Part shown: positions 15,601 through 63,075 of the stretch, piece by piece
How positions within the stretch are numbered: position 1 is the stretch's first letter
Layout: each line of letters starts with the position of its first letter
Origin: Obrimoposthia wandeli
Lineage: Eukaryota
Direction of reading: 5' to 3'
Assembly: GCA_977020255.1 (NCBI GenBank)
Contig: CDROCS010002056.1
Span: forward strand, 124,001 to 188,000
DNA: 64,000 bases
Position numbers and translations under genes: made by a program
The notes under the pieces: generated by a model
Databases searched by the model: none
What the model was told of the DNA's origin: nothing
What the model saw: the letters and a program-made list of their open reading frames with translations, nothing else

Positions 15601-18600
15601 AAAAGTTATGATAATTAGAAAAGACGGCGACGGCATTTAAATTTTGATGTTTATATCAACTAATACTTTACTAATATATATTGTTCTGAAATAATAAAAA
15701 AAAACATTTAGTAACTATGAAGTACTTAATTCTTTTGATATATTATGGGGTAATTAAATTTAAGTAAAAGAAAATTACTAAAAATATTAAATTATCTAGC
15801 TTTACAATGAAAATGTCCTAAAAGATTTTAAAAAACAAAAAATTTCACAATTTTTTTGTAAATTTTTTTTGAATGATCAAAATTTCAAAATTATCAAGTA
15901 ATGGAAATTATAAATTTTAGAAATCTGATAAATATCTTCTTACTCTGCTGTGTATAACTCCATTTGTAGTTAGACGAGCCTCTTCTATAGTTATTGTTTC
16001 TACCTCTATCACGTATTGGAAAACGGCGTTGATCTCTCGGGTAAAAGACACTGGAGCCACTAAACTGCTGCTGTTGTTGTTGGGGTTGAGTCTGGACAGT
16101 CCTCTGAATCAGTAAACTATCTACCATTTATGTTTTCTTCATAGGTTTGAAGAAATAAATAGTTTGCCAAAATATATTTAAATTAGATTGTTTATTATAA
16201 ATAACTTATAAATATGATCAACATGATTTTCACATTGATTCAAGTTAATATATTTTTTTATTAAACTGTGGTACCTTGATTTGGAAGTGCAAAATTAAGA
16301 AGTACACAAATACATATTTTTCAGAGCCTGACTTATTATTTAAGTAGAAAATAAGCAAATTACACTAATTAAAATTTCATAAAAAAGAAAAGTTTGCGTC
16401 ATTTTTGAAATTTGAGTTTTTGTTGTTGCAGTTTTTATATACAATTATGCTAAATTTAAAAATGCAGCTATTTTATTCACAAATAGATGGAGTTTATATT
16501 TCTTCTACTTTTTAGTATTTCTTTAGCATCTGGGACGTGTACAAATTATGCAAATATATCCTCAGGTAAAGAGTCTGGTGCTTTTTGCTCTTTAAAAAAG
16601 AAACGTGTTGAAAGTCTCCGTCAATGGAGCAACAAAACAAAAGAATGTCTAGCATTTAGTACTCCAATAATCTGGAGAGAAGAATGTTATTCAACTACGG
16701 ACTGTTACTTCTGTATGAGAAGTCTCATGTTATTATTTCAAAATAATTTTAAACATTTTATGAGTAATTACGAATTCATAAAAAAATCTTATTCCTATTT
16801 TCACAACTAATCAAGTGATCAAAGATAGAAGACTTCATGGCCATCCTCGCGTACCAATGACAATCTTTAAAAGTAAGATATGGGAAGAACTTTATCCTCA
16901 CATAGTTTTCAAAAATGTTGCCAATTATGCTAAATTTAAAAATGCAGCTATTTTATTCACAAATAGATGGAGTTTATATTTCTTCTACTTTTTAGTATTT
17001 CTTTAGCATCTGGGACGTGTACAAATTATGCAAATATATCCTCAGGTAAAGAGTCTGGTGCTTTTTAAAAAAGAAACGTGTTGAAAGTCTCCGTCAATGG
17101 AGCAACAAAACAAAAGAATGTCTAGCATTTAGTACTCCAATAATCTGGAGAGAAGAATGTTATTCAACTACGGACTGTTACTTCTGTATGAGAAGTCTCA
17201 TGTTATTATTTCAAAATAATTTTAAACATTTTATGAGTAATTACGAATTCATAAAAAAATCTTATTCCTATTTTCACAACTAATCAAGTGATCAAAGATA
17301 GAAGACTTCATGGCCATCCTCGCGTACCAATGACAATCTTTAAAAGTAAGATATGGGAAGAACTTTATCCTCACATAGTTTTCAAAAATGTTGCAGTTTT
17401 TATATACAATTATGCTAAATTTAAAAATGCAGCTATTTTATTCACAAATAGATGGAGTTTATATTTCTTCTACTTTTTAGTATTTCTTTAGCATCTGGGA
17501 CGTGTACAAATTATGCAAATATATCCTCAGGTAAAGAGTCTGGTGCTTTTTGCTCTTTAAAAAAGAAACGTGTTGAAAGTCTCCGTCAATGGAGCAACAA
17601 AACAAAAGAATGTCTAGCATTTAGTACTCCAATAATCTGGAGAGAAGAATGTTATTCAACTACGGACTGTTACTTCTGTATGAGAAGTCTCATGTTATTA
17701 TTTCAAAATAATTTTAAACATTTTATGAGTAATTACGAATTCATAAAAAAATCTTATTCCTATTTTCACAACTAATCAAGTGATCAAAGATAGAAGACTT
17801 CATGGCCATCCTCGCGTACCAATGACAATCTTTAAAAGTAAGATATGGGAAGAACTTTATCCTCACATAGTTTTCAAATAATTTCAGAAATGCACCCACG
17901 AAATTTCACTCAACACACATGTACGGTTTTAAAGGACAGTGATAGCCCCCCTCACGAGTGCAAATGACGACACAGAGGACTATCTTTTTGAGAGATTATA
18001 ACAGCGATAAGGTGACGATTACGACAAATAGGTAATTACTAATATATGTCCACACTGCAACTTGTATGGGCCAAACATTTCGGAATGGTAGAGAACTTTT
18101 ATAGGCTATCCTGAAAAGTATGTTTTATATAATGTTAATTTTTTCGATTTTAAAGAAAATACCAAGATTAAAAATTTTGCAAAAAGAAGCATACAATCAA
18201 ATATAACAATGATTACTTTATGTAAGCAGATTTCGAAATTACTCTGTTTATAGATATTTTTTGTTATTTTCGAAATATATCAGGTATTATGGATCCATGC
18301 ATATTTACAGTATTGTTTGTATTAAACCCATTTTAAATGTAAAAAAGATATAGTTTTCGTAGGAAAGTTAAATGTTATGTTATGCAATAATGATGATGAT
18401 GACGATGATATTTGTGATTATGACGGTGATATTTATAGCAGAGCCTGAAATACAGATGAAAAATGATATTTTGTTAACGAATAATAGGAATTGATGTTGA
18501 ATGATTTACGATTATCGAAAGTGAAATAAATAATCAATTCTACAAGTCTTCTTGTCTAATCATCTCATATTCCCTCAAACAAGATCGGCGTAATATATTA

Positions 18601-34100: not shown

Positions 34101-37100
34101 TCGACAATAGAGGGTCACGACTATACCTTAAAATCCTCATAACCTTTCTCAGCCAGACACTTATGGTGTGGCAAATCACCCTTGTGAGATTGTGTATGCA
34201 CACAAGGGGGAGGATATCAAGTGGCCTAGATTCCATCCTTCCACAACATTAACTACAAATAAAACAAAATCTAATATTTTTGTATTTGTTCTTATTTTAC
34301 AAGGGAAGACCCATCTCCTTTTAAGTTGTTAAATTTTAAATGTATAGTTTCTCCAAAAATTATAATATAATATTTAAACTTTTACATATTCAACTTCTAA
34401 ATTAAAAAAATCTAACAAACTATCATATCGAATCGGAAAGTCTAATATAAACTATTTAGAATACATACTTTTTTATTATTTTATGGACGAAATAATTACT
34501 ATTATCTATTGAGATTTTTCAACTACTTACTGTCCATTGTTATACTTTATTAATCAATCTTCTTTATTACAATGGAGTTTAAACAATGATGGTACTACTA
34601 ACTGCTGACAGAAAATAGGAAACTTTCTTTCTTGAATATGTATAGAACTTTTATAACAATTAAAATTTGATTTATTTATTTTAAATTTCTATAGTTAATT
34701 ACATTGAACTTCAAGACAGAAGACCCAATGTTTGTTATAGCGAATCTCCAACGAGATTCAAACTACATATTTTACAACACATAAAAGAAAAAAGTAAAAC
34801 ATTATGCAAACAAATTTATTAAACATCAAAATAATAAATATTGTTATGTTGAGTAAAGTGGAATGTTGCCTATTTGTTTTATGTATATTCTTGGAGTAGA
34901 AAACACCCGCAACCTACATTAACTATTAATGTAGCATCCCTGTAGCCGAACTAATGATGTATTAGCAGTCTTTCGGCATCAGTAAGGGTTGTTGTAGTTT
35001 GCTGATTATTCTAGAGTTACCGAATCAAGAATATCTTTTAGGTGACGCAGGTATTCGAAGATATTTTAGAAATTAGTACAGCAATAAAGTGTTGTTACGT
35101 TAATATCCAGCATTTATTACATAATCTTTAAAAATGATTAAAAATATTGTTACACAATAATTAAAAAAGTTCTTGACAGAAAAATAGAAGATAACAGTCA
35201 TTCATTTTCATAAAATAATAATATTATGTTATGTCATGACCCTGAAAAATTTTTATTAATTTGAAAAATTATAGAATAACAAATTTAATATTTTTAAAAA
35301 TATTTAAATATTCCTGTTAAATAAGGTGTTCCTCTTTTAATCATTATAATTTATCCCAATATTAATGATTTTTTAAATTTATAAGTTTTTTAAATTAAAG
35401 TAATAATGAAAAGCCTATATACTTATAAAATGTAATTGAAATACTTTAATTTTGGTATATACTAATCCTTGATTATTTCAGATTCTCGCGCAATCAAGAC
35501 GTACATAAGAACAAAGAGTGGTCGTCTGATAGAGAAGATAGTCTATATGAATGAGGAAGACTACAAGGCATTCCTGGATGCAATTGCTAGAGGTGAAGAC
35601 CCCTCAAAGATTCTGGAAAATTACTTGAGCAAGGATGATATGAAGAATCTCGACTCTTACGACAAAGACGAGCAGGTGGCAGTCAAAACTTATGTTCGTA
35701 CAAAGAGCGGGCGACTGATTGAAAAGATTGTTTACGTTTCGAAGAAAGACTTTGAAGCTATGCAGAAAGGAGAAATTGATGCGAATGAATTTATGCGCCG
35801 GAAACTGGGACTAAAGAGCGGTGAGAAATTGGAGGGTTGGAAAGAGTCAAAGATGCGAAAAGTGATGATGAAAGTTAGAACGAAGAGTGGTCGAATAATC
35901 GAAAAAGAGGTGATGATTTCTGAGGAGGACTATCAAAAACTGCAGGCTGGAGGCAATCTGGACGAGATTATGAGCAAATATATGAAGCCAGAGCCAGGAA
36001 CGAAGTTGCTGGGTTGGGAAAAGAAAAAGAAACCAGGAATGAAGGTGGTCAAAACCTGGGTGCGCACAAAAAGTGGGAGATTGGTAGAAAAAACCATTAT
36101 GATGACTGAAGAAGAGTATGCAGATTTTGTAAAGGGTGGACAAAATCCCGATTTTTTGAAGAAATACTTGAATTTGAAAGAAGGAGAAACAATTGACAGA
36201 TGGGAGAAGAAATCAACAGTTTATGAAGGTTCTGATGATGAAAAAATCCAAAAAGGTATGACTTCATTAATTAAAAAAATATATTTTCAATTTTTTAAAT
36301 GTTTTGGTTAAAACATTTCGAATTCACAAAGTTGAAATACATTTTGAGTACAAAGACTTATTTAGTTTAAGTTAATTTCATAACTGTAAATATTAATTAT
36401 AGGAGAATTTATTTCAGGTAAAAATATTCCTGATTTTTAATATATTTTTAAATTTATTTATTTATTCTCAAACAAGTTGGTTGACAAAATATTTCCTCCC
36501 TAATTCCATTATTTTATTTATTTGTTTGTTTAAGTTAATATTGTAACATACGTTGCGCTATTTTTAAATTGAAATGATTAATTACTCTTAATTACCTAAT
36601 TAACCATTTCTTCACCATTATTTATACCTCCTAGATTTTTGGGAGATTATAGATTTTTTCAAATTTATATTACATCAATGTTACTTCATTAAGTGGTTTT
36701 ATTTTCTTTATGAAACTTTTGTGTTTTAAATATGTTTGTTAATCTGTTAATTTTATGAAAAAATGTTAATTTTGGTCGACATTTAATCAATCAAATCGAT
36801 TTAAATAAAAAATACAAATGTATTCGCTAAGCCTACGGTTAATAATTAACAATAATCGAGACTTCGGACCAACTGTTGTAATTATTATACTCTTTTTTTC
36901 ATTTTTTAATTTCAATACTATTTGCCTAAAACATAATAGAAACATTAAATTATTATAAAAGCCTTAGTTTTTTTATTTTTATATCTTTTATGCAGTTATG
37001 TTACAGAGCTAATATTTTTGAGAATATTTTCGATTTTCACTTTGATCATTTATTTTTTAATTGTTTACATCAAAGCAAATAAGCAAATTTCATGAATGCC

Positions 37101-40100
37101 AATATAAGGGAATTCATCCATTTAAAGAAATTATTGTCTTAAGTCTTTACAGGATAAATTTATGACAAAACAGTATTACTCATGATAATTAATTGCTGAT
37201 TAAGAAAATTGACTTAATAAGCAATAAATTTAAATGGGTCAATCAGACCGTATTTCTGTTTGTACATTACGGTACCTTGTTTTATGTGATTATGTTCACG
37301 TTGTTGTGAGGCTATACATATCCAGTGGTTAATATGAATTAAAAGTGGGATTGTAAGTTTAAAGACTAGACAGGATATATGAATGAGAGAAATTGTAGCA
37401 TCACAATGTATTGGAGAATTCTGAAAGATGTAACATAATACACTATTGAGAAAGCAAATATAGGTTTAATGAGTTAGTAGCAAGGATCTAAATAATATTA
37501 ACACGACTTAGAAGAAGATATGACTCAAGAAGCAGTTATATATATACCAGACAATGCTACAAAAAGTTACCACGAATATTAGTCTAATATTTTTGGAGTA
37601 GAAACGAAAAGAAAGATTGGGAGATTCTATTGAAACATTGCTGAAATATGCCCAGCAATTTACAAAAGATTTAGAAACGCAGATGAAATAGCACTAAGGA
37701 TGGATAGTAATATTAATAAACCAATTAAAGTTTATTCTAACATAAGCTAAGCCAATGTGGTGGACTAAAAAGCAGTTGATAGGGACAGCAAACATCAAAT
37801 TGGAAGAAAGTATTTACAAAATTGTACAAGAGAACGTTACAGTGATCAGTGCAGTGCGTATAAGAAATGGTTTGTGGCAGACCAATGGAAAAAAGTAAAT
37901 GACAAAAAGTTGCCTAATAAATGTTTACAGAAATGTCATTAAAATGCAAAAGAAGCATCAAGACAGTATATGAAGACATATTAGTCCGATTGACCTGATC
38001 CATTTGCAAGTTCAACTAAAAATGATGGTGAATTCGTGAGTAGGTAGATGTGGCACTTCTGGAACAAAGCCCCCCCTGAGGACAAAATTTTTTCAAGGTC
38101 AAGTTGAGGACAAAAAATGTAGGTCAAGTTAAGGTCACGGTGAGGTCAAGATGTAGGTCATGACCTCATGAGGTCATGACCCCCCTATGCTCAGGAAAAA
38201 TGTCTTTGTCCTGAAAGACACACATCAAGTAGGGGGATGTGTGTCTTTCAGGACAAAGACATTTTGAGCATACCCCCCCCTTGAGCACAGTTTAAGGTCA
38301 CGGTGAGGACATGACCTCATGAAGTCAACTTAAGGTCACGGTGCGGACAAGATGTAGGTCATGAGGTCAAGTTAAGGTCAATGTACTTTAAGGTCATTAC
38401 GTCATGAGGACAATGTACTTTAAGGTCAAGTTAAGGTCATGATGAGGACAATGTACTTTAAGGTCAACTTAAGGTCATGACGTCATGAGGACAACTTAAG
38501 GTCACGGTGAGGTCAAAAAGATTTTATTTTTAGTAACATTCTTTAAATCTATATATCTTTTTATCTAAAGACTGTATTAACACCAATTCAACAAAATACA
38601 TCTAGTGTGTGTGTGTGTTTTATAATTTAAATTAAATTATCTACTTATAAAATAAAGTATTATATAATTTGATAAATTTATTTAAACTAAATTAAATTAA
38701 ACTATCTACTTATAAAATAAAGTATTATATAATTTGATAATCATGTTTAAACGTTCCTATATCTATCTAACAAAGACAGTCACGTACTGCATCTATATTG
38801 CAAAAGCCTGCAAATTTATGTAAATAAAGACAAGTATTTCAAACACATATATTCCTTAAAATCACAAAGGAGAATAAAAATATGTACAACACATATAAAA
38901 AGTTTATACAACCTCGTCCAGGTATAAAAAGTGACCATAGGCGACTGAACGGTTTTTCTCCACCCACTTGCGCTTATCATCACTACTACTTAAGGCAATT
39001 TTACTTAACCTTACAGTGAAAAGTTGATGATTTAGCGAGCTTATACGTTGTTGTTGTACACGCTCGCTAACGCCACTCTCATATACGGCTAAGTAATTAG
39101 AGTGCCTAATACTCGTCTGTCGGAGACTAATACCTTTCGCTCTCATCTGAGATTCACCTTCTGTAGTCTCTAGGCTATATGATTTTGGTCGTAGAAAAAT
39201 CCCTTGCCTATAACTAAATAATCCCTTACTCTCATCTTTAAATTTTCCTATCGCTGTATTAAGCGTCGTATAAAGCGGATGGGATTTTGGAAATTTCGAG
39301 ATATCCAACAGTCCATCAGCAATCATAGCAGGTAACAGTGATTCTTGAACATTGACATTATTACACTTCAAGAAAAAGCTATCAGTGTCACCCGCTATAA
39401 TTCTAATGTCGCAGTTAAATTGAACTCGATATTTCTCCAACTGCTCATATTGTAGATCATACATACGAAGTTTGCTTAAATCTAATACCGCCTGGCCCAT
39501 GTAACTAGGACGATCCAAAACAATATTTTCCTTATCCAGTAAAACTGCAATAAGATCCGTATCGATTTCGATTGTCCTACGAAAGTGGGCTTTACTGCAA
39601 TAGGTAACCAGCTTCTGTGGAGTATTACAAATCCGGAAATTAATTCTTTTCATTAGATTCTCAATGAGTTTTCAAAATAAAGAATTCACCTTCAGTTTAT
39701 AATAATCCCGCTCGAAATCTGTTGTAGCCGCAGCTCTTTTGAGAGAATTATCCTCAATATATTTTGAAAAAACATTAGTTTGTTCAAACTGTATTGCTCT
39801 ATATACAAAATCTACCTTAGCACCAAGTCTAACGTACATTTGTAGTAATCTAGAATGCACAACATAATGTTTCTTAGGGTAATGCGTTAATAACAATTTT
39901 TCAGTCTTACACCCTGGTGGACGCTGTTTAATGGGAGCAAGGGGAAGATCGTCGAATTTATTATGAAGCTCGAAGGGAATGGATAAATCTATTTCCAATA
40001 AATGAGCGAAGCGACTACAGGATAAATCTACTGATTTTAAACTGGAAATAATATTCCCCAACTCTAACCGATCAGTCACCCAGGAAAAGTTACCACAAGG

Positions 40101-43100
40101 TAAAAACTGGGACATAGCCCACCCGTACAAATTATTTAAATCAATGTACAAAAGTTCTGTACCATTGATGGCGTCAACGCGGTGTTCATTAACAAATGTC
40201 ATACCCCCGCGAATCCCAGACCGGAAGAGTCGGTACATTTCTGGATCCTGTATTAGCTCGACTCGCACAAAGGGAGCAGAAGAAGAAGCCGGACGAAGCA
40301 GGGATTTGAAAGCACTCGCGAAAGTCAGTCCTGGAAATAAAAATATTTATTAAAATCATTGTGAAAATCATTGTGAAAATCATTACTTTGAAAATCATCT
40401 ATCTAACAAAGACAGTCTCGCATCTATATTGCAAATACTTGCATCTTTATGCAATCAATAGTAACAAGTACTACATTTATTCTTATACATGTATATATAT
40501 ATGTGTTAGTGTCTAAAATTAGAAAAAGTTAGTAAAATACAAACCAGGGATGGAGAAGAAATTGAGTGGCTCCAATCCATCGTCAGCAATGGCCTTGGTC
40601 CGGAATGCTGTAAACACGTCTGCTAGAAGGTAGACGTCCATCTTCATATAGACCAGCATATAGTCCCAGAGCGATGAGTAGTCGCTCTGAGTCCAGACCA
40701 TCTTCGCCATTTCATATTGTGCTGGCTTGATCTTCTCATCCCACTTTGGCGGTAAGCTGGTGATTGCGCGAAGAGCAGTCTCTGATACTGCCATATCGTA
40801 TGGGAAGATTCCCTTGGCGCTCACCAGATGTTGCGGGAAGACCGAATGTGTAAGAGGAGTCACACCCAGGTTTTCCACAAGTTTTTCTAAGCTGCTGTTC
40901 AAAAATTGAAGGGAATCGATGAAACGTATACAGACTCCTCCAATATACACCATCATAGCCTGGAATTTCTCTGTTGATTGAGGTATAACAGATACATTCC
41001 AGTCGGGAAAATTGCATAGTGCGTGCTTCAATATATGGAGCATGTCATAACCCATAAGATTATGAAAAATGACGGGAAAAGATCGATTGATTCTCCTTGA
41101 TAAGTTGCATTTCGTATGCGCTGCTCCCAGGTATTCGCCAGTCATGTGATCGTGATCTCGAACTTTGTTTGCGAGTTTCTTCTTACACAGGTAACAGATT
41201 CTTGCTGCATTGAAACTCGATACCTGTTCCTGTGTGAGTTGTCGCATCACCTCGATCGCATGCTTCTTGTACCATGGGAGAACAACCTCTTTCGCCAAGT
41301 CCTCTAATTTTTGCAAAAAGGATACCACACAAGATTCCCCGGTAAAGACCGAGTAATCATGTGTATACCCTCTCGTGGCTGCAACGGGAGACATGAGCAT
41401 ACCGGCCGAGATTGGAAGTTGAATCTGATGGTGGATTCCATGTGGCGGCAGCACAGCCTCAAAGTCCGCGTAAACAGCAAAAGGCGGAGAAATCGTTTTT
41501 GAAAAGTCCTTAAACTCAATATGCTTCTCTGTAGGCATTGAATAAATAATTTGTTGATTGATGCTTGCTTATATACTATTTTCGAGCTAGTATTAAGCCA
41601 ATCAGATTCATTCATTATTTAAACCAACCAGATTAATTTAAAACAGAATAGTTTACTGACAGATGTGAGTAGTTGAATTTTCATTAATATTTAAATAATC
41701 CAAACTAGCTGCAAAGCATTTCTTGTATGCACAATGCTCGCCATGTTTAATATATGGACAATTGATATTTGATGGATTTAATTGTTTTAATGTTTTCGAG
41801 TAATTTATCACTCTAAATTCAGGAAAATATTTATTGATTGTCTTTATTTTAGCTCCATTATTTTCATCCAAAACATAGAAAATTGATTTGGATACATCAC
41901 AACAACGTTTTATTTCCTCAGTTATTTCTTGTATCTTGAAATAACTATTACCATCAACTAGTTTTAGTCGATGGTAATGCTTAATGAGATATCTATTTAT
42001 TTTTCTTGATTTTCTATTCATCATGTCCCATATGGGTTGCATTTTAAAAACATAATGTTTAGGATAGAAGATTGCATCCACATCTATTATACATAGTTCT
42101 TTTATTACAAATTCAGTATTATTATCAATAAAAGCTTCAAAATCAATAAAATAAACAGACATTTTTATAGCAATAATTTTATTTGATATTGTTTATATCT
42201 ATTGTTTATGCTTTAACCAAAGCAGAGAGAGTTGTCCACATGACTGTGTTAAAACATTTTGATAATGTTTCTTACTAAAATGTACTTTCTTTCCAGAATC
42301 AAGTACTGTAGATACTAATTTAGAAGGGTAATATATCCCAAAGGGGTCAAAAACAAAGATTTCATTTTCTTTAACATGTATTGCAATCCAATGTTCACCA
42401 CGCAAATTAGATGAATGTGTATTGATTACATATCCACCTAGTCGAGTCAAAGACTGATCAAGGCTGTAGACTCCATTGAAACACGTACCGAGTAGTTTTC
42501 TTCCGCTTTTTGTTATCTCGTCCGAACTAGAATATATATTAATTAATAAATTCAAACTGACTTACTTCATTTATATATCTTCTTTATTGTTTTCATTCTG
42601 TTTATACTAGTACTGTTCCTCCCTTGGTAATTTGAACCTCAGAATCGAATACTCCATAGATTATAATATTAGTAGGGTGTTCAAGTGCTTTTGAAAACTT
42701 GATTTCTACTTTCAAATTTACCTGTTTAGGGATTTGAGCTTGATTAATATCGAAATCAGGAGAGAGAACAAATGTGAACAGTGTATACTTGTCCTTGAAA
42801 TCAGTCATTGAAATTCCAATATTAGCATCCTTATCCAAATGACCAAGATTTCTAATTAAAGATTGCACATAAGAAAACACATAATCATCGTTTTCAAAGT
42901 CATTCGTATAAGATTCTTGATAATCAATATTTCGTGCAAGTTTAATTGAACTCACATTCATGTGTCCAAATTGAGAAACCTCATTTTTAGACTCACCTCC
43001 ATAGGTAGACGTGTTTTGGAAAGCAATTAAAACAAAGTTTGGAAGTTGCATATCACCAAAAATCTGATCCTTGTAATAAGATAGTGCTCCCGTAGGGATA

Positions 43101-46100
43101 GCGTGAGAAACAAGATTAGTTTTTCTAATAGGATAACATGCATTTTGCTTCTCCAACCCCATTCGATGTGCAACAAGTACAGATGGTTCCACCTTTACTC
43201 GTCGAACCAGCAGTTTTGCTTCCGTAATCTCAATTGCGGTTTTAATAGTATCAGCGCAAACAACACTAAAACCTACTGGATTTCTTTTCATTCGAATATG
43301 TGCACTTACACCGGGTAAAATATACTTTGGTTGCTTAAAGAAATCCAAATGGAGACTCCCACAAAGTGACAATACTTTAGACTTTGCAATCGAAGCAATT
43401 CTTCTTTTTTCATCATTGTCAAACCCAATTGCATCAAGATTAATCAATTTCGTATCATTACCGTAATTCAACAATGTTTCAATCATTGCTTTATGACTGT
43501 AACTAGTATTATTTCCCTCAACTTTCACATTATTGAGACTGAGAATCACATCCTTGAAAAGAGTATGCAACATGTAATTAGCTGATTTGATATCCATACC
43601 ATCATCCAAATCACCTCCACCTTCCTTTGTAACTTTCAATTTAACGAGAAATCAACTATCATTCAAATCAAGATATTGAGTATTGGATCCATTAATATTG
43701 AATTCTAAATCCGGAGAAGATGTCCCGTTAACCGTATTTGTTGGAAATATTTCTTCAAAACTAGCACTATCAACCACAACCTGAGGTATAGGTTTATCGA
43801 ATATACACAATTCAGTTTTAGCACAACTCATTACTTAAAAATTGTTCCACCTAGTTTCAAACGTTTGAGTGAACGTACATCCTCTTGATTATAATGATGC
43901 ATCTTTAACTTTAATGTCGGTAAATCATATTTTTGATTTGGTAATTCCGATTCATAAAACATACTTTCAATAGGAGCTTCTTTCATACCGTATCTTAATG
44001 CTAAACTTTTATTATCAATTTCTAAATTGAAAGCTTGTCCCGTAGTGCGAGTTATACAAATTTTGTTTTCGCCGCTAAGGTAAATAACATATTTACTATT
44101 AATTGGAGTTAAATACTTGACGAAAAATTCTCCATGTTTCATTTTCACACCAGCTTCAACTTCAGTTTTTATTCTTTTCTCCGCAACATAATCTATAATT
44201 GACCCTCCTTTAATGGATAGAGGAGAGTAATTGAAAGAAAATTCCGTCAGAGCAGCTTCCCAATGCCCAGGTAAATTGATTGAGCTTTGATAATCAATAC
44301 TAAAACTATTAGCAGTATTATTCGGCTGAGTTAATGGTGAACCATTACTTGGTAATACAACATACATTGAGTTCATTCTATTTGAGAAGCTAATATCCAA
44401 CTAGGTTCAGTATATCCATGCCACTTAACATGATATTGTTTATGCTTTCCTCTACCTTTTGTCTCTAAAATTTCTTGGATTCTATATACATTTGATTTCT
44501 CAGGCAAGACTTGTAATTCCTCATGATAAAATTTACCCGTGATTACATTATTGGTTTCATCCTCAATGAAATACATTACCGGCATACGTTTATTATCAAT
44601 TTTAGTTATACGAAATACTTCATCGCTCCAATTCTCTTTGAAATTCTTTATAAAAGGAGTAGTACTAATTTGAGAAATACGTACATAATCACCAACTTTA
44701 TACTTGGGTTTCCGCGCAACTTGACTTTGGTTACGGCGTTGCCAAATTTCCATAGCATTCTCATCTGTAACATCAACGGGTCTCTTTCGGTCTAATGATG
44801 AGTGTTGACTATGATTGTATGCATGTATTATTTGAGGTAAAACAGTAACCCAGGACTTATTTCCCTGCTTTGTGAAATACGTTTTCAAACGATCTCTCAA
44901 TGTTCGATTAAAACGTTCAACTAAAGCGGCTTTATATTGGGAAAATACTGAGTAATGATTAATATTATGTTTTTTCAATAGTGTTTCAACATGTTTATTA
45001 TAAAACTCCTTTCCACTATCCGTTTGGAAATTTCTTGGTTTTATTTCTTTAATCAAAAGCTTCATTGCGGTTAAAACATCGGTACCAGACTTAGACTTTA
45101 ATGGAATAGCTCGCGCGAATCTGCTAAAGACATCAACACAAGTTAAAATATATCGATATCCGTCGTTAATACTCGCATACGGAATCATTTCCATCAAATC
45201 TGCTTGCCATAAATCATTCGGGCCGCTCGTTTTGTATGATCTCGTTGGGAACCGACGTCTCATTGGTTTGTTTAAGCTGTAAGATAATTGATTTCTCAAC
45301 CACGCCTGAGTTTCCTGCTTTGTCTTCTTTGACTCTTTTGCTAATTTTGAAACCCCTGTGTAACCAACGGGATGACTTGGATCGAACCATATTTTCTCCA
45401 TTGCAGCAAGACGATTTGATTTTTAAATTGAATTTAGGAATAGATGGAAGTGATCCCATATATAAATTCATATTATTGATTCGAATTTATGTTTATAATC
45501 ATCGGTTTATTAGTCTACTAGCAAGTGCACTAACTATTGAGCTAATAATTGGTACGAGAAATCCTAAAAATCCACCACTTTGCTTATAAAGCAACTTACG
45601 TTTACCGATTCGTGTTTTGGCATGAAACAAAGCAAGTAGAGGTTTCTTATGCCGATTCAGGTTAGCCTTGACAATTATTTTACCAGAAACTATTTTCTGT
45701 ATCATATTAAGTAAATCATCAATTACAAAAGTAGGGAATGATTTAAGAATAGCTGGGCGGCGAATAGCAGGTGCACGCATGAGAGAATTGAAATAGGCAA
45801 TACTCCTAGATTTCTTAACAACAGTTCTTTTCGATTTTTGAGCAACCATTTTCCTTGCACTTAAAACTGATTTAATCAATTTTTTAACTTCGGGTTTAAC
45901 AGTTTCCTTTTTAAAATTCATCTTCTCAAAACTGGTTTCTTTGTTTGTTTATAGACGGTTATTCCCGATGGATTGAATACATCAGTTCTAACTCTAAAGT
46001 CATCGGGACAATCTTGAGTAAAATCAATAAAAATGTATCCATGAGGAATAGTAGTTGCATCTTGAAATGAATCAATTAAAAACTTTCTATTATTCGGGTA

Positions 46101-49100
46101 AGCTTGTCTTGAAACAAATTCAACAACCGTCTGATCACGTGGATTCTTGAAGAGAACAAGGTAATGTACATTTAAATTACGAGTTCTATGGTTCCCTCCT
46201 TGATGAAATAGATTTTGTGTGATGAAAATAACAGTTACTTACCGATGTCGAGCTATTTTAGTGAATAAATTATTGAGATCACTCTCTTTATTTACTTCTT
46301 GATATAAATCATCAATAACAATAACATCATGTCGTTGTAATCGCTCAGACCAATTATCATCGAATCCATTAATGACTTTTATATTTTTGATTTTCTTAAA
46401 CTCTTTACTGGTTAAACCAGCTTCTCCATCTCCTCCCTGATGCATGTATATTTTATTAAACTTAAAACTAAAGTATTTATTATTTTGCAGTAATTTACAT
46501 ACAAAGTGTGTTTTCCCACTACCACTAGGACCTACAATCTGAAAAACTGAATTATTTTTTAAGTTCATATTAAAAATATTAGATTATCGGGATAATGTTT
46601 ATAAGACAAAACTATTTAAAATATTTTATTACGAAACATCCAGCAACAAACAATAAAAAACTCTTCTCGTAGAAAAAGCTCCTTTTCTCTTCTTTGTTTG
46701 CGAGTTTCTTCTGATTGTATCCCTGAATGAGAAGATTGACTGCCTTGTCGTGCACCATTCTTCTTACGTGCTCCTCCAGGGGTAGATTTGAGACATCAAT
46801 GAGTTGTAGGACATCTGGTTGTATGACATTCTTCGAGATGAAGACACTAAAGACACTGACTAATAAAGACACTAAAGACACTGACTAATAAAGACACTGA
46901 TTAAAGATACAGACGAATAAAATTTACACATGATAACGATTAAAAATACGTATTTGATGAAGCATAGCTTCATTAGGAGCAGCAATAGTCCGTTTAGCTT
47001 TAACAAGATTCGAAGCAGCAGTAACACCAATCGAATGAGATAAAAATGCAATAACAATGCAAGCAGCATGTAAACTACCATAATGACTACATACTAAAAT
47101 ATTACCACCATTTTCGATAGTTTCTTTAATTATATTATTAGTCTGTTTATAATACTTCATTATTGTTTCTCCTAATTTTGAGTTTACAAAGACAGAAGTA
47201 TATTTTAATTTCTTATAAGATATTTTATCCAGTATAGATGTATTGATTACATGAGTGAAATTGGAATTCAAAAGATTAGTTTCATCAAACCCATCTCGAT
47301 AATTACCAATATATAATTGATTTACTAAAATCTCACTCATCGCTGTTTTGTTTAACTTTTCTACATTAAGTTGAGTAAATCTAGCACTAAACAAACTATC
47401 AAAATGATGGGTCATGTGGTTCATTTCCATACTCGAAGCATGAGCTATTATGGGTTCCATAAAAGCCAAAGCATTTAAAAAATCTATCCGTCTCTTATCT
47501 TCAATAATTGGATCTATAATAATTTCTTCTTCTATCGTCACTTCATCAATAGTTTCTTCTCTTCTTATAACTGTTGTTATTGTTGCTGGTGGTGATGATG
47601 TTACTGATGATGTTGCTGGCGATGATGTTGTTGGCGATGATATTGCTGGTAGTGATGATGTTGCTGGCGATGATGTTGTTGGCGATGATATTGCTGGTAG
47701 TGATGATGTTGCTGGCAATGATGTTGCTTCTGGTGCTGAATTGATTTTCTCCATTTTATCAATTCCGAGTCAATTTAGTCTTATATATTAAACAAGGTTA
47801 GATTTCATTGGAGCATCAGTTTCATCATATGATTTGATTGGAGTATTATTCAATCTTTCCATTGTACTTAACATCTCATGTAAATGTAGTTGATGACGTA
47901 ACCTAAAGAGTTAAATAAACTACATATAAATATTACTCATGATTATTTTTCCTAATTAAAGCATTGAGAATAACTGAAGCAAGATCTTTTAATGCATCCT
48001 GAACCTCTTTACATTCAATAATTTCATCCATTTTATGATAAAGCAAATCAAATATTGTTTATAACCCATGAAAAATCTATTTTTAGACCACAACTATTTG
48101 CAACATTACAACGTTTGCAACTATTTGCAAGTAATGACATGTGATGTCTTTGTCTTAGTATAAACAATATTTTGATAATGATTTTATTGAAAATGGATAA
48201 TCAAAATAATCAAAATAATGAAAGTAGAGCTAGTACATACATAGGTTCCGGTAGTAATTTATATTCTAATATGAATTATAATAGAAATAATCAGAGAGAA
48301 CATATTAATCCATTAAGTCAAACAATAACAAGTCCTACGCGCGTAACCGAAGAACGTGAACCCTTTAAGGATATGACTAATACTAGACGATAAAGAAGAA
48401 TATTAACCAATTGAGACTAATCGATTTTCATAAACAAGAATATCGACCAATTAGAATCGAGCTTTAGAGGATAAACAATTGAATATTTCAATTTATAATT
48501 GTCAATATGAATTTCGAAAAGCTATATCAACCTATGCATACATATTATGGATATGAGATGCACTTTTTGAAGAAAGCTCATAACTATAATTTTATTTTTC
48601 CTGTCAACATCGAGCCGCTTAAATTTGATTTTGAAATATCAAATTTGACTTCTGTGGATAAAGAGAGAATCAATATTCTCTTGACTCAATTCGGAATCAA
48701 CTATGTGCTTCAGGAAAACAAATTCGTAATCAAAGGATCAACTGCCACTTTCAAGCATGAGAATGGAACAATATTCGATGGACCTCCTCCTAAGCTAGAA
48801 TGGATTCTCTCAATCAGAATTCAAGGTTGCAAGATCGGGCCCAGTGGATTTGAAACTCCGATATGGAAAATAATTGATGCTGTTAGAGTTGACTAATAAA
48901 TATTTGTGTCTTTATTTGTATTATTTTATATATATAAACAATAGTGATACTTTAATATTTATTATGAAAATGACTAAAAAACCTACTAAATCATTAAAGA
49001 CTAAGGTTAAAAAGACTATGAGTAAAAAGACTATGAGTAAAAAGAAAATCATGGAGGGTTTGGGTATTCATATGATGGCAGCAAATCTTTTAGGTAGATG

Positions 49101-49370
49101 GTTTGGCGGAGTTGATAAAAAAGCTATAAAGCACAAAAAGAATGTGGATTATTTGAGAGGTATACAAAATCAGAAACGAGTGCAAAAAGGAGATGGTATA
49201 CAAAAAGGGGATGGTATGCTTGATATTTTTGTAAAATTAGATAAACTTACAAAAGCATTTGAAAAGGATCCTAGTGCCTATCTTGGTCCAAAACTAAACA
49301 TTTTAGCAAACCAACCAAAAACTTTGTAATTACATTGCAATATAGATGCAGAGTGTCTTTGTTAGACACT

Positions 49371-49412
<42 letters not shown>

Positions 49413-52400
49413 AATAAATGTTACTATTGATTACATAAAGATGCAAGTATTTGCAATATAGCTGCAGTACGTGACTGTCTTTGTTAAACATAGGAACGTT
49501 TAAACATGATTAACAAATTATATAATACTTTATTTTATAAGTAGATAGTTTAATTTAATTTAGTTTAAATAAATTTATCAAATTATATAATACTTTATTT
49601 TATAAGTAGATAATTTAATTTAAATTATAAAACACACACACACACTAGATGTATTTTGTTGAATTGGTGTTAATACAGTCTTTAGATAAAAATATATATA
49701 GATTTAAAGAATGTTACAAAAAATAGAATCTTTTTGAACTCACCGTGACCTTAAGTTGTCCTCATGACGTCATGACCTTAAGTTGACCTTAAAGTACATT
49801 GTCCTCATCATGAGCTTAACTTGACCTTAAAGTACATTGTCCTCATGACGTCATGACCTTAAGTTGACCTTAAAGTACATTGACCTTAACTTGACCTCAT
49901 GACCTACATCTTGTCCGCACCGTGACCTTAAGTTGACCTCATGAGGTCATGTCCTCACCGTGACCTTAAACTGTGCTCAAGGGGGGGGGTATGCTCAAAA
50001 TGTCTTTGTCCTGAAAGACACACATCCCCCTACTTGATGTGTGTCTTTCAGGACAAAGACATTTTTCCTGAGCATAGGGGGGGTCATGACCTCATGAGGT
50101 CATGACCTACATCTTGACCTCACCGTGACCTTAACTTGACCTACATTTTTTGTCCTCAACTTGACCTTAAAAAATTTTGTCCTCAGGGGGGGGGCTTTGT
50201 TCCAGAAGTGCCACATCTACCTACTTTCGTGAACAATTCTGGTGATAATTTATAAAGGAGACAATACAATAAAAATGAATGCCTTATTGTATGAAGTCTG
50301 CATCACAAGTTATATTAGTTAGGCTGTTAGATTAGTTGAGATTCGACGGAATTTAAAGTAATATCTAAATCGGAGAACTTGGGAAAATATTGAAAGAAAT
50401 GGTATGTAAAAAGGTATATATATATTTATATATCAGAAAAAGTGACAAAGCGTGGCAGGTAACTCTTGAGTAGGCAAGTTGACGTTTATGTCGATTAGGG
50501 TATCGAGTTCCACACCATTGCCGATGAGGTCTAGCTCTTTTAAGCTTTTGAACTCATAGAGGTATTCGAGTGTATTCAAGACAGTACTCGTTGACATTGA
50601 TGCTAGGTATTCGTTATAACCAAAATCTACTGTATACGATTTGTGTTAAATCAAAACATGTAGTTTATAAGAAAATTTCAGTTTTTAAAATTATATCAAT
50701 TGATTAATGAACACAACTCAGGTTATATTCAATATCCAACATCAATAACAATCACTTCAATTGTTTTGCTTGTCGTAGATAAGCAACAATAAGTTACTGT
50801 ATATATATATTGATATCAGAGTTTTGTTCCACATTGTTGATAAATGTTACCTTCAAATTTGAGAAAGATCAGGGTAAGCCCTTCAATAAGTCACAGTATG
50901 TTAGAAACTCATAAGTTGGAGACTAGATTAACTAGTGAAACAATGCTGAAGCCAATATAGGGAATATTTAGTATTTAAAATATTAAATTTGATTGAAAAA
51001 AACTGACTTCATATTTAGAAAGTTTCCATTGTAGATTAGGGAAAACTAGGCGATAAATATACATAAACCGGTATTTTTATTTAGCTAAACTAGGAAAGCG
51101 GTATGTTGACAAAGACGGGAATGAGTACGAAGTCGTGGTAGATCCTCTAACTGGTAAGAAATATAAAAGGTGGGCACTATAGATTTCTTGAAAATTATCT
51201 TAAAACAATAAATCGAATTTTCATGACATTTTCCATTTTTTAGAATTCTACAAAAAGCAGATGGTCTTCCTCCAAAGTTCAGAACCAAAAGTGGAAGAGT
51301 AATAACTGAGAAAGACATACAGAAAAGGAAAAACCTCAAACAAGGAAAAAGGAATGAAGACAGCAATAGTGACTTCAGGTTTGTCTGATGATAATTTATT
51401 TTGATGTTGTGTTTATTAAAAAAACATCTGATATTTGACATTTCCATCTCGAGTATCCTTTATAAATATTCTATAACTTTAAAATAAAATGTTTAAACAA
51501 ATTAGACAATTAGTATACCGTCAAATATCGGCCTAATGTTTTCCCTAAACTGTATTCAAATCCAGGAAGAGCTTACTCCTCCAAATGAGTGCTTGCTTAT
51601 CGGACAATCTCATTTATATGACAAATGTCAAGGCTTGAAGTAGTATATTTTATAAATTTTATTATTATTGCTAAAAATATAATTAATAATTTTCTAAATA
51701 GTTTTATTCATGAATTATTTTAAATCATTCAGTTATTCAGTAAAATTTCTCCCACGCACCTATACATATGGGTATGGTAGGTCTTATGCAGCATACCTGG
51801 TTTAGTTCCGTGTCAGATTTAATTCAGCTTCCATCTATGTCTTCATGGGATGGCACCGCCCGGGTTGGTTCCTGTGCAACGTTGCTGGTATTGATGTTGA
51901 ACTCATTCCATCTAGAGAAGTTATATTACAATAAAAAATCTAAATATGATCTCGAGTTTATCTTTGCTATTCGTTTGATGGCTGGGTGGTTTCTTTCGAC
52001 TATTTCATTTTCTTTGAGTCGGTAAGCACAACGTAAAGTTTTTTCATATCTCATTTCAAACAGACATTTCAAACAATTTCTGATGGAAAACGTAAGCCAT
52101 TCTCCATTAACAGTTTAATCACAGGTCCTCTTTATCTGAATAATTCGTCAATAATCAAAGAATTCCATACGAAAATATTTCTTGACATACAGTCAATCAA
52201 TTTCTTTTCGTAATAAGTTATGTTGATTTCTAGTTATGACTATTTAAAAAAAATATTTATGTGTTTCAATTTTGATTTAGGATATATATATATATATATA
52301 AATTGTCTCCCATAAAATTGAGACTATTGTCGATCCAATTTGTCAGAATCCTAGACGACAATCAATGCATTTAGAAAAGCAAGTGGATGAAATGATTGAA

Positions 52401-57917: not shown

Positions 57918-59170
57918 TGAATTTAATTAAAAGCAATCCGAACATTTACAAAGTCTCATTAATGAAAAAAGATTTTGATCTGAATTTTATATTACAACAT
58001 TTAAAATAAATTTCACTTCAAATATTTTTCATTTAATTTAAAGTTATTCTTAAGTGTTGAATTGTTTTTAAAAAAAGTAATTACATTTTAATAACTATTG
58101 ATTCAATGTCTACAAAAAATAAATAATTTAATTATATAATTAAATTATAATATAGTAGGTATAATATGTGTGACTTCTGGCACAAAACCACCCCCCTCCG
58201 GGGGGTCTGAGTAATGTCTTTGTGGTAAAAATCTGTGACTCATCGATGACTCATTACGTGATCTCATGAAGTCAAGGTCGCTCTTGAATGTGGTTCTTTG
58301 AGGTGGTTCTTTAAGATAAGTCTTTGAGATGGTTCTTTGAGGTGGTTCTTTGAAGTAGTTTTTTAAGGTAGTTTTTTGAGGTGGTTCTTTAATATGGTTA
58401 TTCGAAGGGGGTTCTTACAAAGTTAACCTTCAAGGTTCTAAAACCTTCAAAAATACATTTTTTCTACTTTTTAAAGTTATATATGATAGGCTTGGTCTGA
58501 CCTTGGTTAGATCTTCGAGGGTTAGACCTTCAAAGATCAAAATAATCAACAAAAAAAAATTTCCAAAAAGTCAAAAATATATTTTTAAAATAATTTTTGT
58601 TTAAATTTTCAAAAAATGTTCAAAATTCAAAAATTTTTAAAAACTTTGAATATTTATATTTTTTTACTTTGTATTAATAAACAATATGAGATTATCTCAT
58701 TGTTAATGATGATATTACCATATGTTTATTGTTTGTATATGTACATGTAACGATAAGATCTCAGCTAACTTTTGTATTCATCCTAATCTCGATTGTATAT
58801 GTATATGTATTTATATATTTAAGTAATGATGAGATCTCAAACAACTGTTATATGTCAAGTGCTGTGTTAAAGTGAAGAGTTAAGCATCACTAGCATATGT
58901 GCATAAGTGTATTCATCAATGAAGTAACATCTGGTTTATCTTAATTAGATTTTATCAGCAGCTGTCATGTTCAAGTGATCTGTTTATATTTAACGACAGC
59001 TGCTATTTTGATTAATTATTAATAATAAAAATTGTAAATGATTTTTTTAAATTAATTTTACTTCAAAAAACTTCAAAATTTTTTTTACTTCATATTTTTA
59101 AAACATATATTTCTTAAAATCACAAAGGAGAGCGAGAAATGGAGAGTAAAAATATATACACATAAAAAGA

Positions 59171-61940
59171 TCATATAATTTCGCCCTAATATAAAAAGTG
59201 TCCATAGGCAACTGATCGATTTTTAGTAATCTACTTGCGTTTATCATCACTACTGCTTAAGACAATTTTAATTAACCTTTCAGTAAAATGTAGATGATTT
59301 AAGAAGCTTATACGTTGTTGTTGTACACGCTCGTTACAATCAGTCTCATAGATGGCTAAGTAATTAGAATGTCTACCTTTAGCTCTCATTTGAGATTCCC
59401 CTTCTGTAGTCTAAGCTATATGATTTTGTCGTAGAAAAATACCCTGCCTATAACTAATAAATCCCTTGCTCTCGTATTTAAATTTTCTAATCGCTGTATT
59501 AACCGTTGTATAAAGCGGATTGGTTTTTGGAAATTTTGAGGTATCCAACAGTCCATCAGCATTCATAGTCGGTAACAGTGATTCTTGAACATTTACATTA
59601 TTACACTTCAAGAAAAAACTATCAGTGTCCCCTGCTCTAATTTTAATATCACAGTTAAATTGAGCTCGATATTTATCCAACTGTATATATTGTAGCTCAT
59701 ACATACGAAGTTTGCTTAAATCTAATACTACCTGACCTATATAACTAGGACGATCCAAAACAATATTTTCTTTATTCAGTAGAACTGCTATAAGGTTCGA
59801 ATCGATTTCAATTGTTCTACGAAAGGGGGCTTTATTGCAATAGGTTACCAGCTTCTGTGGAATATTACAAATCCAAAGAATAAATATTTTCATTAGATTC
59901 TCAATGTGTTTTCTAAATAAAGAATTCACCCTTAGTTTATAATAATCTTGCTCGAAATCTGTTGTAGCTGCAGTTCTTTTAAGATAATTTTATACAAAAT
60001 ATACCTTAGCACCAAGTCTAACTTACATTTGCAGCAATCTAGAATGTACAACATATTGTTTCTTAGGGTAATAATTTTTCAGTCTTACACCCTGGTGAAC
60101 GCTGTTTAATTGGAGCAAGGGGGAGATCGTCAAATTTATTATGTAGCTTATTGGGTATAAATAAATCTATTTCCAATAAATCCACTGATTTTTAACTAGA
60201 AATAATATTCCCCAACTCTAATCGATCAGTTACCCAGGAAAAGTTATCACAAGGCAAAAGCTGGGACATCGCCCACCTGTATAAGTTATTTACACCTATA
60301 TACAAAAGTTCGGTACCGTTGACAACATCCACCTTGTGTTCGTTCACGAAGGTCATACCCCCTTGAATTCCGGACCGAAAGAGACGATACATATTCAGAT
60401 CCTGGATGAGCTCCACTTGTATAGAAAAAGCAGCAGCATAGGTATCAGTATCAGCATCCGCCCGAAGCAGTGACTTGAAGACCGATGCAAAAGTTAGTTA
60501 TGTAAAGAGAAATATAGATAAAAATATCAATAAAACATTTACTAAAATCATTACTTAGTAAATATTTACTTATCATTACTTATTAAAAATTAGTAAAATA
60601 TAAAGATTCAAACCAGGTATGGAGAAGAAATTTAGTGATTCCAGCCCGTCGTCTGCAATAGCCTTGATCCGGAATTCTGTAAAAAAACATCGGCTAACAG
60701 TTATATGTCCATCTTCATGTATACCAGCATATAATCCCAGTGCGATTTGCAAACACTCTGAGTCCAGACCTTCTTCGCCATCTCATACTGTGCTGGTTTA
60801 ATCTTCTTGCTTTAAATCGGTGGTAAGCTAATGATAGCACGGAGAACAGTCTCTGATACTGCCATATCGTATGGAAAGATCCCCTAGGCGCTCACCAGAT
60901 GTTGAGGGAAGACATAATGTGTTAGAGGAGTAACACCAAGGTTTTCAACAAGTTTCTCAAGCCCGCTATTCAAAAAATTCAATGAATCTATAAAGCGAAT
61001 AGAGACTCATTCAATATGCACCATCATATCCTAAAATCTCTCTGTTGATTGAGGTTTCACATAGACACTCCAGTGCAGAAATTAAATCAACGTTTGTTTC
61101 CGTATGTGGTGCACATCATAACCCATCAAATTGTGAAAAATGACGGGAAAAGAGCGATTCACTCTCCTTGATAAGTTGCATTTCGAATGCGCAGCTCCGA
61201 GGTACTCTTCAGTCATGTGATCATGGTTGTGAACTTTATTCACTAGCTTCTTCTTACACAAGTATCAGATTCTCGCAGCATTGAAACTCGATACCTGATC
61301 TAGTGTAAATGATCGTATAACTTCGATGGCTTGATTTATACCAATGGAGTACAACTTCTTTCGCCAACTCCTCTAACTTATGCAAAAAGAATACTACACA
61401 ATATTCTCCTTTAAAAAGCGAGTAATCGTGTGTTTACCCTGTTGTGACTGCAACGAGAGACATGCGCATACCAGCTGAGATTGGTAACTGGATCTGATGA
61501 TGAATTCCATGTGGTGGTAACACAGCCTCAAAGACGGAGAAATTGTTTTGGAAAAGTCCTTAAACTCAATATGCTTCTCTGTAAGCATTGAATAAAGTGT
61601 TGAATGTTCCAAATTCATCCTACAGAGTGGAACGTGCTTGACGTAACTTATCGGTCTCCGGAACCCATGGAGACACTTATGGCACCAAGTACACTGGATA
61701 CGATTAGATACACCTCTCTTCCTATAATTAAGTAGCCTATTTAGTTTAGGAATAGCGACATAATTAGAATTATCATTATTTTCTAAACGGAAAAGAATAA
61801 TTTGCGTAGCGTCCACATATGGATTTGTAAAGATATCTCAATCCGTTTGTACATTAGAAAACCTTTTTAATGTAAATACGTTGATTGAGATAGATGGGTT
61901 CTTTCTCTCAAATCGCAGTATATTATATAGACGCATCGGC
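59171..61940 (-). pseudogene. pPolB: pPolB relic of copy C, multiple frameshifts, retains more N-terminus than copy B
   Basis: AGDTDSFF, NNLYRWAM, CHKCLHGF..HVPLC; intron donor at the same codon as in copy B (~60614). Confidence 0.9.
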
Positions 61941-62374
61941 ATCTCATCCTTTTCAAAAACTAATCAAAAACTATATCTCAATATATTGATTAACGCACTG
62001 AAGATTAGTATGAAATACTTCGCGAAAAAGCACAGCTAAGATGCTGTATAGAAAACAAAAGTGTTAGAGTTCTGCACATTGATTACGCAATGTGAGAGCG
62101 CTAACTCGGATGGGGTAGGTATATAACTACTCACCTGGAGATAGTTCATTGTTGTTGTTTTAGTCACAACAAACGAAATCTACAGGAAGCGGGTCACTAC
62201 CCAATTACTGACACTCTGTGAGTAATTCTCAATTTTCTTGTTGATGGCATCTACTCCTGCATCTATAAATCCATAGTAGTATATAGTGTCGGTAATAACT
62301 CAAAGCGACAATGAGACCTCCCTGGGGGATTTGTAACTTTGAGTTAGAACCAAAATTATAGGCTTTAAAATATG

Positions 62375-62598: not shown

Positions 62599-63075
62599 AT
62601 TAAAAATATTAGATTTTTGGAAAAATGTTTATAAGACAAAGTTACTTAAAATATTTTATTTAAATACATCAACCAAAAAACTATAAAAACTCTTCTCCCA
62701 GAAAAAGCTTCTTTTCATCGCGTACTCTTCTTTCTTCGCATACTCTTCTTTCTTTTGATTGTACCCCAGAATGAGACGATCGAGTGCTTTGTTGGGAATC
62801 ATTCTTCTTACGTGCTCCTCCAGCGGTAGATCTGTTGCATCAATGAGTCTTTAAACATCTTCTTCTAAAACGTTTTTCGAGATGAAGCTCTTCGCTGCTT
62901 TATCAACATCTTGTTTGAAATATTTGGGAGTAGACATAATAATAAAGTAAGATTAAAAAGTATTATGTTTATATACTATACAACTAAAATTTTATTGACT
63001 GCTGATTAACAAAGACACTGACTAATAAAGATAATAACTAACAAAGACATTGATGAATAAAATTGACATATGATA

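Follow-up and report, generated by a model that had tools for sequence, protein, structure and literature searches.

The core genes of vertebrate and nematode Mavericks are usually described as intronless. For vertebrates, the accessible text of PMC8097293, citing Kapitonov and Jurka 2006, describes intact elements as lacking introns and treats the 'introns' of gene models as decay, and for nematodes the accessible text of Widen et al. (bioRxiv 10.1101/2022.07.12.499685) places introns in cargo genes while the core genes are intronless; the initial annotation of the DNA studied here had described the group in the same way. Spliceosomal-type introns inside integrated elements are known from dinoflagellate Maverick-like elements, where, in the accessible part of the report, introners are mobile and have mostly entered after integration, and where the intactness of the elements is unclear (Gozashti and Corbett-Detig, 10.1101/2025.03.18.643946, PMC12166617). 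CACTA-type cut-and-paste transposons are also replicated as DNA and have a key enzyme gene that is split into exons, but they carry no polymerase or capsid genes, and in the part of the source available their exon-intron structure is treated as well known (PMC4158355). A report of a spliceosomal intron in the protein-primed DNA polymerase (pPolB) of an animal Maverick was not found in the literature covered, outside which lie subscription papers, Repbase and supplements, nor in the accessible portions of PMC5718144, PMC11296320, PMC12220804, PMC11244446, 10.1101/2024.03.25.586562, 10.1101/2023.08.22.554363, PMC10175614, and PMC5803895.

Here, we analyze a stretch of 64,000 nucleotides from Obrimoposthia wandeli (the window), which contains a Maverick, element B, with candidate genes for an ATPase, a protease and a double-jelly-roll capsid protein in addition to the terminal repeats, the 6-bp duplication, the pPolB gene and the rve integrase gene that it has in common with the vertebrate and nematode elements (polintovirus, adintovirus-type; accessible text of the sources above). 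Unlike in those elements, an intron common to its copies splits pPolB, so that the description of the core genes as intronless, which is not a formal criterion, does not hold for element B. In contrast to the dinoflagellate case, as far as its accessible text goes, there is a single intron inherited within a family, the exons have been under selection, the host is an animal, and there is no sign of an introner family. Judged from two broken copies, the interruption is very probably an ordinary, constitutive major-class spliceosomal intron, with host transcription and splicing yielding the pPolB mRNA. To the known cases the present analysis adds the argument from selection, an intronic block derived from the element itself, and a site apparently shared with distant lineages.

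Element B, its relatives in the window and the host gene

The coordinates of the features are collected in Table 1. Element B has the ends (AGT..ACT), the long terminal inverted repeats (~790 bp, 95.5% to 50225-49431 over 800 columns), and the 6-bp target-site duplication of a Maverick/Polinton. It encodes a retroviral-like integrase (PF00665, rve, at 44373-45422, E 5e-14) and a protein-primed DNA polymerase B, recognizable by PF03175 (DNA_pol_B_2) above the cutoff in both exons (E 1.2e-10 upstream, E 1.1e-12 downstream) although the gene is broken in this copy. Matches below the cutoff were obtained for PF02945 in the upstream exon (E 8e-4), for P-loop proteins including Pox_A32 (E 0.006), and for the adenain-type Peptidase_C5 (E 0.0017); a PDB sequence search with a piece of the downstream exon gave no match. 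A double-jelly-roll capsid protein is probably encoded as well, which we treat as a lead only: the candidate has no Pfam match, its top Atlas match (0.96) is a cluster in which 65% of the members carry PF21738, and its Atlas recognition of 2150 lies below 2300.

Table 1. Positions in the window of element B, its polymerase intron and related features.
Feature	Position	Strand	Remarks
Maverick/Polinton element B, 12.2 kb	38039..50225		lies in a host gene on the plus strand, in an intron of 14.8 kb (36256-51084)
Left 6-bp target-site duplication, TTCGTG	38033..38038	plus	repeated at 50226-50231
Left terminal inverted repeat	38039..38823	plus	inner end is the pPolB 3' flank
Right terminal inverted repeat	49431..50225	minus	
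pPolB upstream exon, copy B	40545..41546	minus	endonuclease VII-like insert and exonuclease part
Intron in pPolB	40544..40331	minus	214 nt, phase-1 GT-AG, within the conserved ..IPG/LT.. linker
~120-nt block in the intron	40396..40516	minus	~79% identical to right subterminal region; absent from copy C
12-nt tandem repeat, 2.8 copies	40352..40384	minus	in the intron's older 3' part
pPolB downstream exon, polymerase domain	38904..40330	minus	in-frame stop 39672-39674
Likely source of the intronic block	49362..49486	plus	3' flank of ORF 48874-49329, into right terminal repeat; AATAAA at 49413
Copy C pPolB	59195..62269	minus	decayed (stops, frameshifts); part of N-terminal region kept
Homologous intron, decayed copy C	60500..60613	minus	114 nt; donor GT retained, decayed acceptor, without the subterminal block
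Donor of a host intron, with the hexamer GTTTGT of the Maverick intron, for comparison	51379..51384	plus	in-frame junction to exon at 57549
Short-motif sites	46841-46904, 63007-63052, 49335-49366, 48380-48900		

Copy B is a dead copy, its pPolB being a pseudogene with an in-frame stop codon and a missing N-terminus, and its ATPase and capsid frames are interrupted too. Of the genomic depth within the stop codon, about 99% differs from copy B, so the stop is private to this copy, and a changed genetic code is thereby ruled out. According to tblastn with full-length relatives, ~330 N-terminal residues are absent, of which copy C retains a part in decayed form; their loss may be a private deletion or may mark a non-autonomous subfamily. 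At 41546 (region 41546-41650) the contigs of other copies diverge from the window, with letters like those upstream in copy C.

Copy C is more decayed than copy B, is without the genes that separate pPolB from the ATPase, and has only the outer ~40 nt of its left end (58154-58460) in common with the terminal repeat of B. A third and more diverged Maverick, copy A (~6389-12335, the right end at ~12335), is ~70% identical to B in the integrase and neighboring genes, and no pPolB match for it was found in the window. Both B and C carry a dual-specificity phosphatase-like gene (PF00782; 46924-47769 and 63076-63789), which in copy B contains a Ser/Thr/Pro-rich repeat. The plus-strand ORF 48874-49329 at the right end of element B encodes a Lys-rich, basic protein with repeated QKGDG and no Pfam match, which may be a DNA-binding core protein of the polintovirus type. 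Motifs of the types TGTCTTT(G/A)TTAG and TTAGTC recur between the element's genes and in the intronic block; one 16-mer of this kind, with 3 mismatches allowed, has 7 matches vs. 0.88 expected, and these motifs are possibly transcription signals. Elsewhere in the window, at 16424-17878, lies a near-identical tandem repeat with a unit of ~480 nt and about three units.

The host gene (32640-57732, plus strand), which has element B in one of its introns, has six exons in this stretch, encodes RTKSGR repeats, and is uncharacterised. It is conserved in spiralians; its 43 listed relatives, where named, belong to molluscs, nemerteans, flatworms, a bryozoan, and an annelid, which points to a spiralian invertebrate as the probable host. 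An Atlas search with a host exon gave no usable match.

The interruption of pPolB

A 214-nt, phase-1 intron with a GTTTGT donor, whose removal joins FFSIPG to LTFASAFK, had been proposed for copy B, and the reading frame, the base composition and the contiguity of homologs all confirm it. From its start at GTTTGT to its end at TTTTATTTCCAG, the insert has a GC content of 0.24, vs. 0.45, 0.40, and 0.38 in three flanking coding stretches, and all three of its frames contain stops. The glycine codon is split after its first base, the upstream frame ending ...NFFSIP and the downstream one beginning LTFASAFK..., and among 27 frame-keeping GT/GC..AG pairs nearby this pair alone costs no coding residue on either side. 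The GT donor, the AG acceptor, the host-like pyrimidine tract and the precise removal, which leaves a conserved and selected frame, are those of a U2 intron; for the branch point there are loose candidates only, TTAAT and TGAT, at 22-28 nt from the acceptor. The donors of five in-frame junctions of the host gene are GTAATG, GTAAGT, GTATGA, GTGGGC, and GTTTGT, and the acceptors are mostly T-rich or pyrimidine-rich, a style that the pPolB insert fits. As judged from the sequence, the insert is very probably a spliceosomal intron, and the support for its splicing can be called strong but indirect.

The contiguity of relatives across the junction was assessed in several sets. Of 120 longer homologs, 93 can be aligned through the junction and show no indel of more than 15 residues, a count that includes P0033, whose alignment is spurious and scores low. 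In another 21 there is a small indel close to the junction, and the remaining six do not span it. Database proteins that reach the site mostly continue in clear homology (159 of 173 and 119 of 132). The 101 fetched loci, a number that includes five contigs twice, comprise 91 that span the site and 10 that do not. None of the 91 spanning loci has an insertion at the site; four database proteins end intron-like at the same glycine. Since the locus scans keep the best matches (the best 80 of 492 in one scan), they favor uninterrupted genes. Of seven close loci that are near full length, six match in a single frame, and the N-terminal part of the seventh (L023) is split into three pieces. The proto-splice motif, MAG/G, arises frequently from Pro-Gly and Lys/Gln-Gly codons, but CAG/G stands at the site in only two of 12 close loci.

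An origin as a mobile intron inserted into the polymerase, either an introner or a self-splicing group I or group II intron, might be considered given the introners of dinoflagellate Maverick-like elements (bioRxiv 10.1101/2025.03.18.643946, accessible text) and given that the CCTGG of the donor site and the CCAGG of the acceptor site could be a worn duplication. It is highly improbable: neither sequence nor fold is that of a group I or II ribozyme, with nothing matching in Rfam even at E values of up to 1 and a predicted folding no better than that of shuffled sequences (z +1.49), and the insert's matches in the window are the element's own ends and one AT-rich match of 40 nt, with none in the 101 loci. 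The specific proposal that the intron arose by target-site duplication from the CCTGG/CCAGG pair is not supported by copy C.

The long open frame on either side of the insert would also fit a split gene with two protein products, the polymerase half having its own start or being reached by recoding, with no splicing. This reading is extremely unlikely, because the two frames meet precisely at the GT and the AG, at the cost of no residue and without an extra one, and because the stretch from the acceptor to the first Met has kept its amino acids through synonymous codon changes. In the downstream frame, which is preceded closely by a stop, the acceptor lies at codon 6 and the first Met at codon 37; in the first 12 codons after the acceptor, 11 amino acids are kept between copies B and C, seven of them through changed codons. 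Conservation ahead of any Met indicates that these codons were read from an upstream start, across the insert.

Copy C, selection and the presence of the intron in the family

The initial annotation had placed an intron at the same codon in two diverged copies, B and C, which is borne out. The copy C intron is indeed shorter and its acceptor decayed, with the donor GT at 60613 instead of ~60614 and a length of 114 instead of ~115 nt; the statement that it is largely different was wrong, since both of its ends align to the intron of B. The first 28 nt and the last ~67 nt of the B intron are alignable to that of C (z 4.8 and 5.8, respectively; 0 of 500 shuffles each), and a unit related to the 12-nt repeat of the B intron occurs in the C intron as well. 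The two introns are homologous, with the ~120-nt block as the difference between them.

The block matches the right subterminal region with 79% identity (blastn E 4e-27, z 17.6) and resembles the pPolB 3' flank less well, while the C intron matches neither the right subterminal block (z -0.4) nor the pPolB 3' flank. It contains an (AT)n run and an AATAAA at 40481-40476, so that the AATAAA of the presumed source, a gene 3' flank, is retained in sense orientation within the intron. In the simplest history, an intron of ~100 nt would predate the split of B and C, and the B lineage would then have copied a piece of its own end into it; alternatively, the block may have been lost from copy C.

Both exons were under purifying selection between B and C. 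For the upstream exon, dS is 0.84 and dN 0.105 (dN/dS 0.13, 314 codons), and for the downstream exon dS is 0.47 and dN 0.095 (dN/dS 0.20, 424 codons, Fisher p 3e-23), low dN values that persist despite the decay of both copies, which should push dN up. The family as a whole was followed through genomic depth in four runs from one sample, possibly the source of the window, whose fragmented contigs were aligned over 37000-43000. Depth (X1) in bins of the element is 105,846-384,239 compared to 47-111 in the host flank, a difference of about three orders of magnitude that is not to be read as a copy number. At 40344, inside the intron and outside the repeated block, it is 131,354, vs. 37,786-298,049 at the listed places in the exons. 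None of the 15 joints listed, of 603, skips the intron or its block, and some joints are not counted in X1. The intron is therefore present in the bulk of the genomic copies of the family.

This bears on the idea that the insert is an inactivating one, confined to dead or non-autonomous copies, with GT..AG at its ends by chance and intronless copies supplying the polymerase. Both copies in the window are pseudogenes, that of C without an AG acceptor, and part of the insert is duplicated element DNA, all of which speaks in its favor. However, the shared insert predates the split of B and C, after which dS reached 0.4-0.8 with dN at ~0.1 on both sides of it, and the insert has exon-like depth, with no intronless joint among those listed, which makes such an origin very unlikely. 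The earlier claim that this lineage needs host splicing to express pPolB gains indirect support from the selection on the downstream exon, the host-like signals, and the presence of the intron throughout the family.

That the intron is regulated, with the poly(A) signal of the block or weakened splicing switching between a short N-terminal product (terminal protein, TP, plus exonuclease) and full pPolB, is unlikely too. The block lies in sense, is a copy of the 3' flank of a terminal gene, and has its AATAAA ~40 nt past the read-through stop; the joints listed include none that deletes it; and in the accessible text of PMC11161782, which describes a TP-vOTU-EXO-PALM layout, TP and polymerase are separate genes in adenoviruses and one coral polinton. 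On the other hand, the window contains 2.3-2.7 AATAAA hexamers per kb and 0.43 would be expected in the intron from its composition, both the block and the hexamer are missing from the C intron, and PGL is all that the read-through peptides of the two copies have in common. The suggestion of the initial annotation that the intron is a possible control point is unsupported, the GTTTGT donor being found in a host intron of the window as well.

For the preferred reading, a constitutively spliced intron, the following course of events can be envisaged. An ancestor of this Maverick family would have gained the intron at the glycine of the 'PG' linker, which connects the exonuclease part to the polymerase part, and the family would have inherited it since. 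Polintons replicate as DNA, without a reverse-transcription step, so the intron would be copied along with the element. The ~120-nt block would have entered later, copied within the element. In functional copies, host RNA polymerase II would transcribe the gene within the nucleus, and splicing would be constitutive. With an intron inherited in its replication enzyme, the lineage would depend on nuclear expression through the host spliceosome, which bears on the question of a nuclear transposon or virus lifestyle vs. that of a cytoplasmic, virophage-like parasite. Surveys based on ORFs score such insertions as decay, and intact invertebrate Mavericks would consequently be undercounted. The high-copy family also offers many copies in which selection on splice sites can be measured.

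The linker glycine in distant polymerases

In a set of 377 database proteins, 122 are truncated, with their ends within residues 598-795 of the reference; seven of these end at 623-624 (Poisson p 3e-4), the position of the intron. Four proteins, P0281, P0350, P0380, and P0369, end in PG-KY.., PG-KF.., PG-KF.., and PG-N, respectively, with tails of AT-rich codons which may represent read-through of a phase-1 GTAAG or GTAAT/C donor. Three of the seven ends have no tail, and one of these has a cluster mate that reads through. P0178, P0285, P0313, and P0167, whose ends lie on the site or directly beside it and carry no tail, were not accepted as intron-like (it is the cluster mate of P0178 that reads through). 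An accumulation of protein ends around residues 669-670 was also discounted, since it probably reflects a variable loop. Viral-contig scans with P0281, P0350, and P0380 found no relatives.

In a quick tree of 64 rows and 198 columns (75 rows had been chosen, and 11 from which the stretch could not be extracted were dropped), the five rows that break at site 623, including the window protein, require at least three changes, and a single clade for them is rejected (AU test, p-AU 1e-21). P0281 is the nearest to the window protein in this tree, and its break and the window intron may be of common origin. Judged from protein ends only, the site seems to be interrupted in distant relatives. It is rather likely that the linker glycine is a recurrent intron site at which separate Polinton lineages have gained introns in parallel, probably several times, and parallel gain would be more economical than many losses. 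The joint proposition, that such parallel gains took place and that a captured gene 3' end acts as an intronic poly(A) switch in this lineage, is improbable, the switch being the unlikely part. If distant polymerases are interrupted at this glycine and at a second one, pPolB would offer a compact test case for the parallel gain of introns, its ancestral state being intronless.

The second of these breaks is at residues 653-654, the glycine of G/IRGG, where six proteins end (P0329, P0337, P0341, P0368, P0390, and P0408), equivalent to the GIRGG codons near 40215 in the window. It includes an aphid Polinton-type pPolB (the P0341 cluster), for whose break no literature report was found. The raw aphid ORFs end in FEQGM and an AT-rich tail, like the pattern of a phase-1 intron, whereas the Aphis glycines model KAE9542307.1 of the same cluster, an automatic annotation seen as protein only, reads through as FEQGIRGG. 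The difference between raw ORF ends and a gene model that reads through serves as a control for the tail signature. The aphid break differs from the window site in lying at the glycine of G/IRGG, 30 residues downstream. Two ORFs have an in-frame insert of seven residues at G/IRGG.
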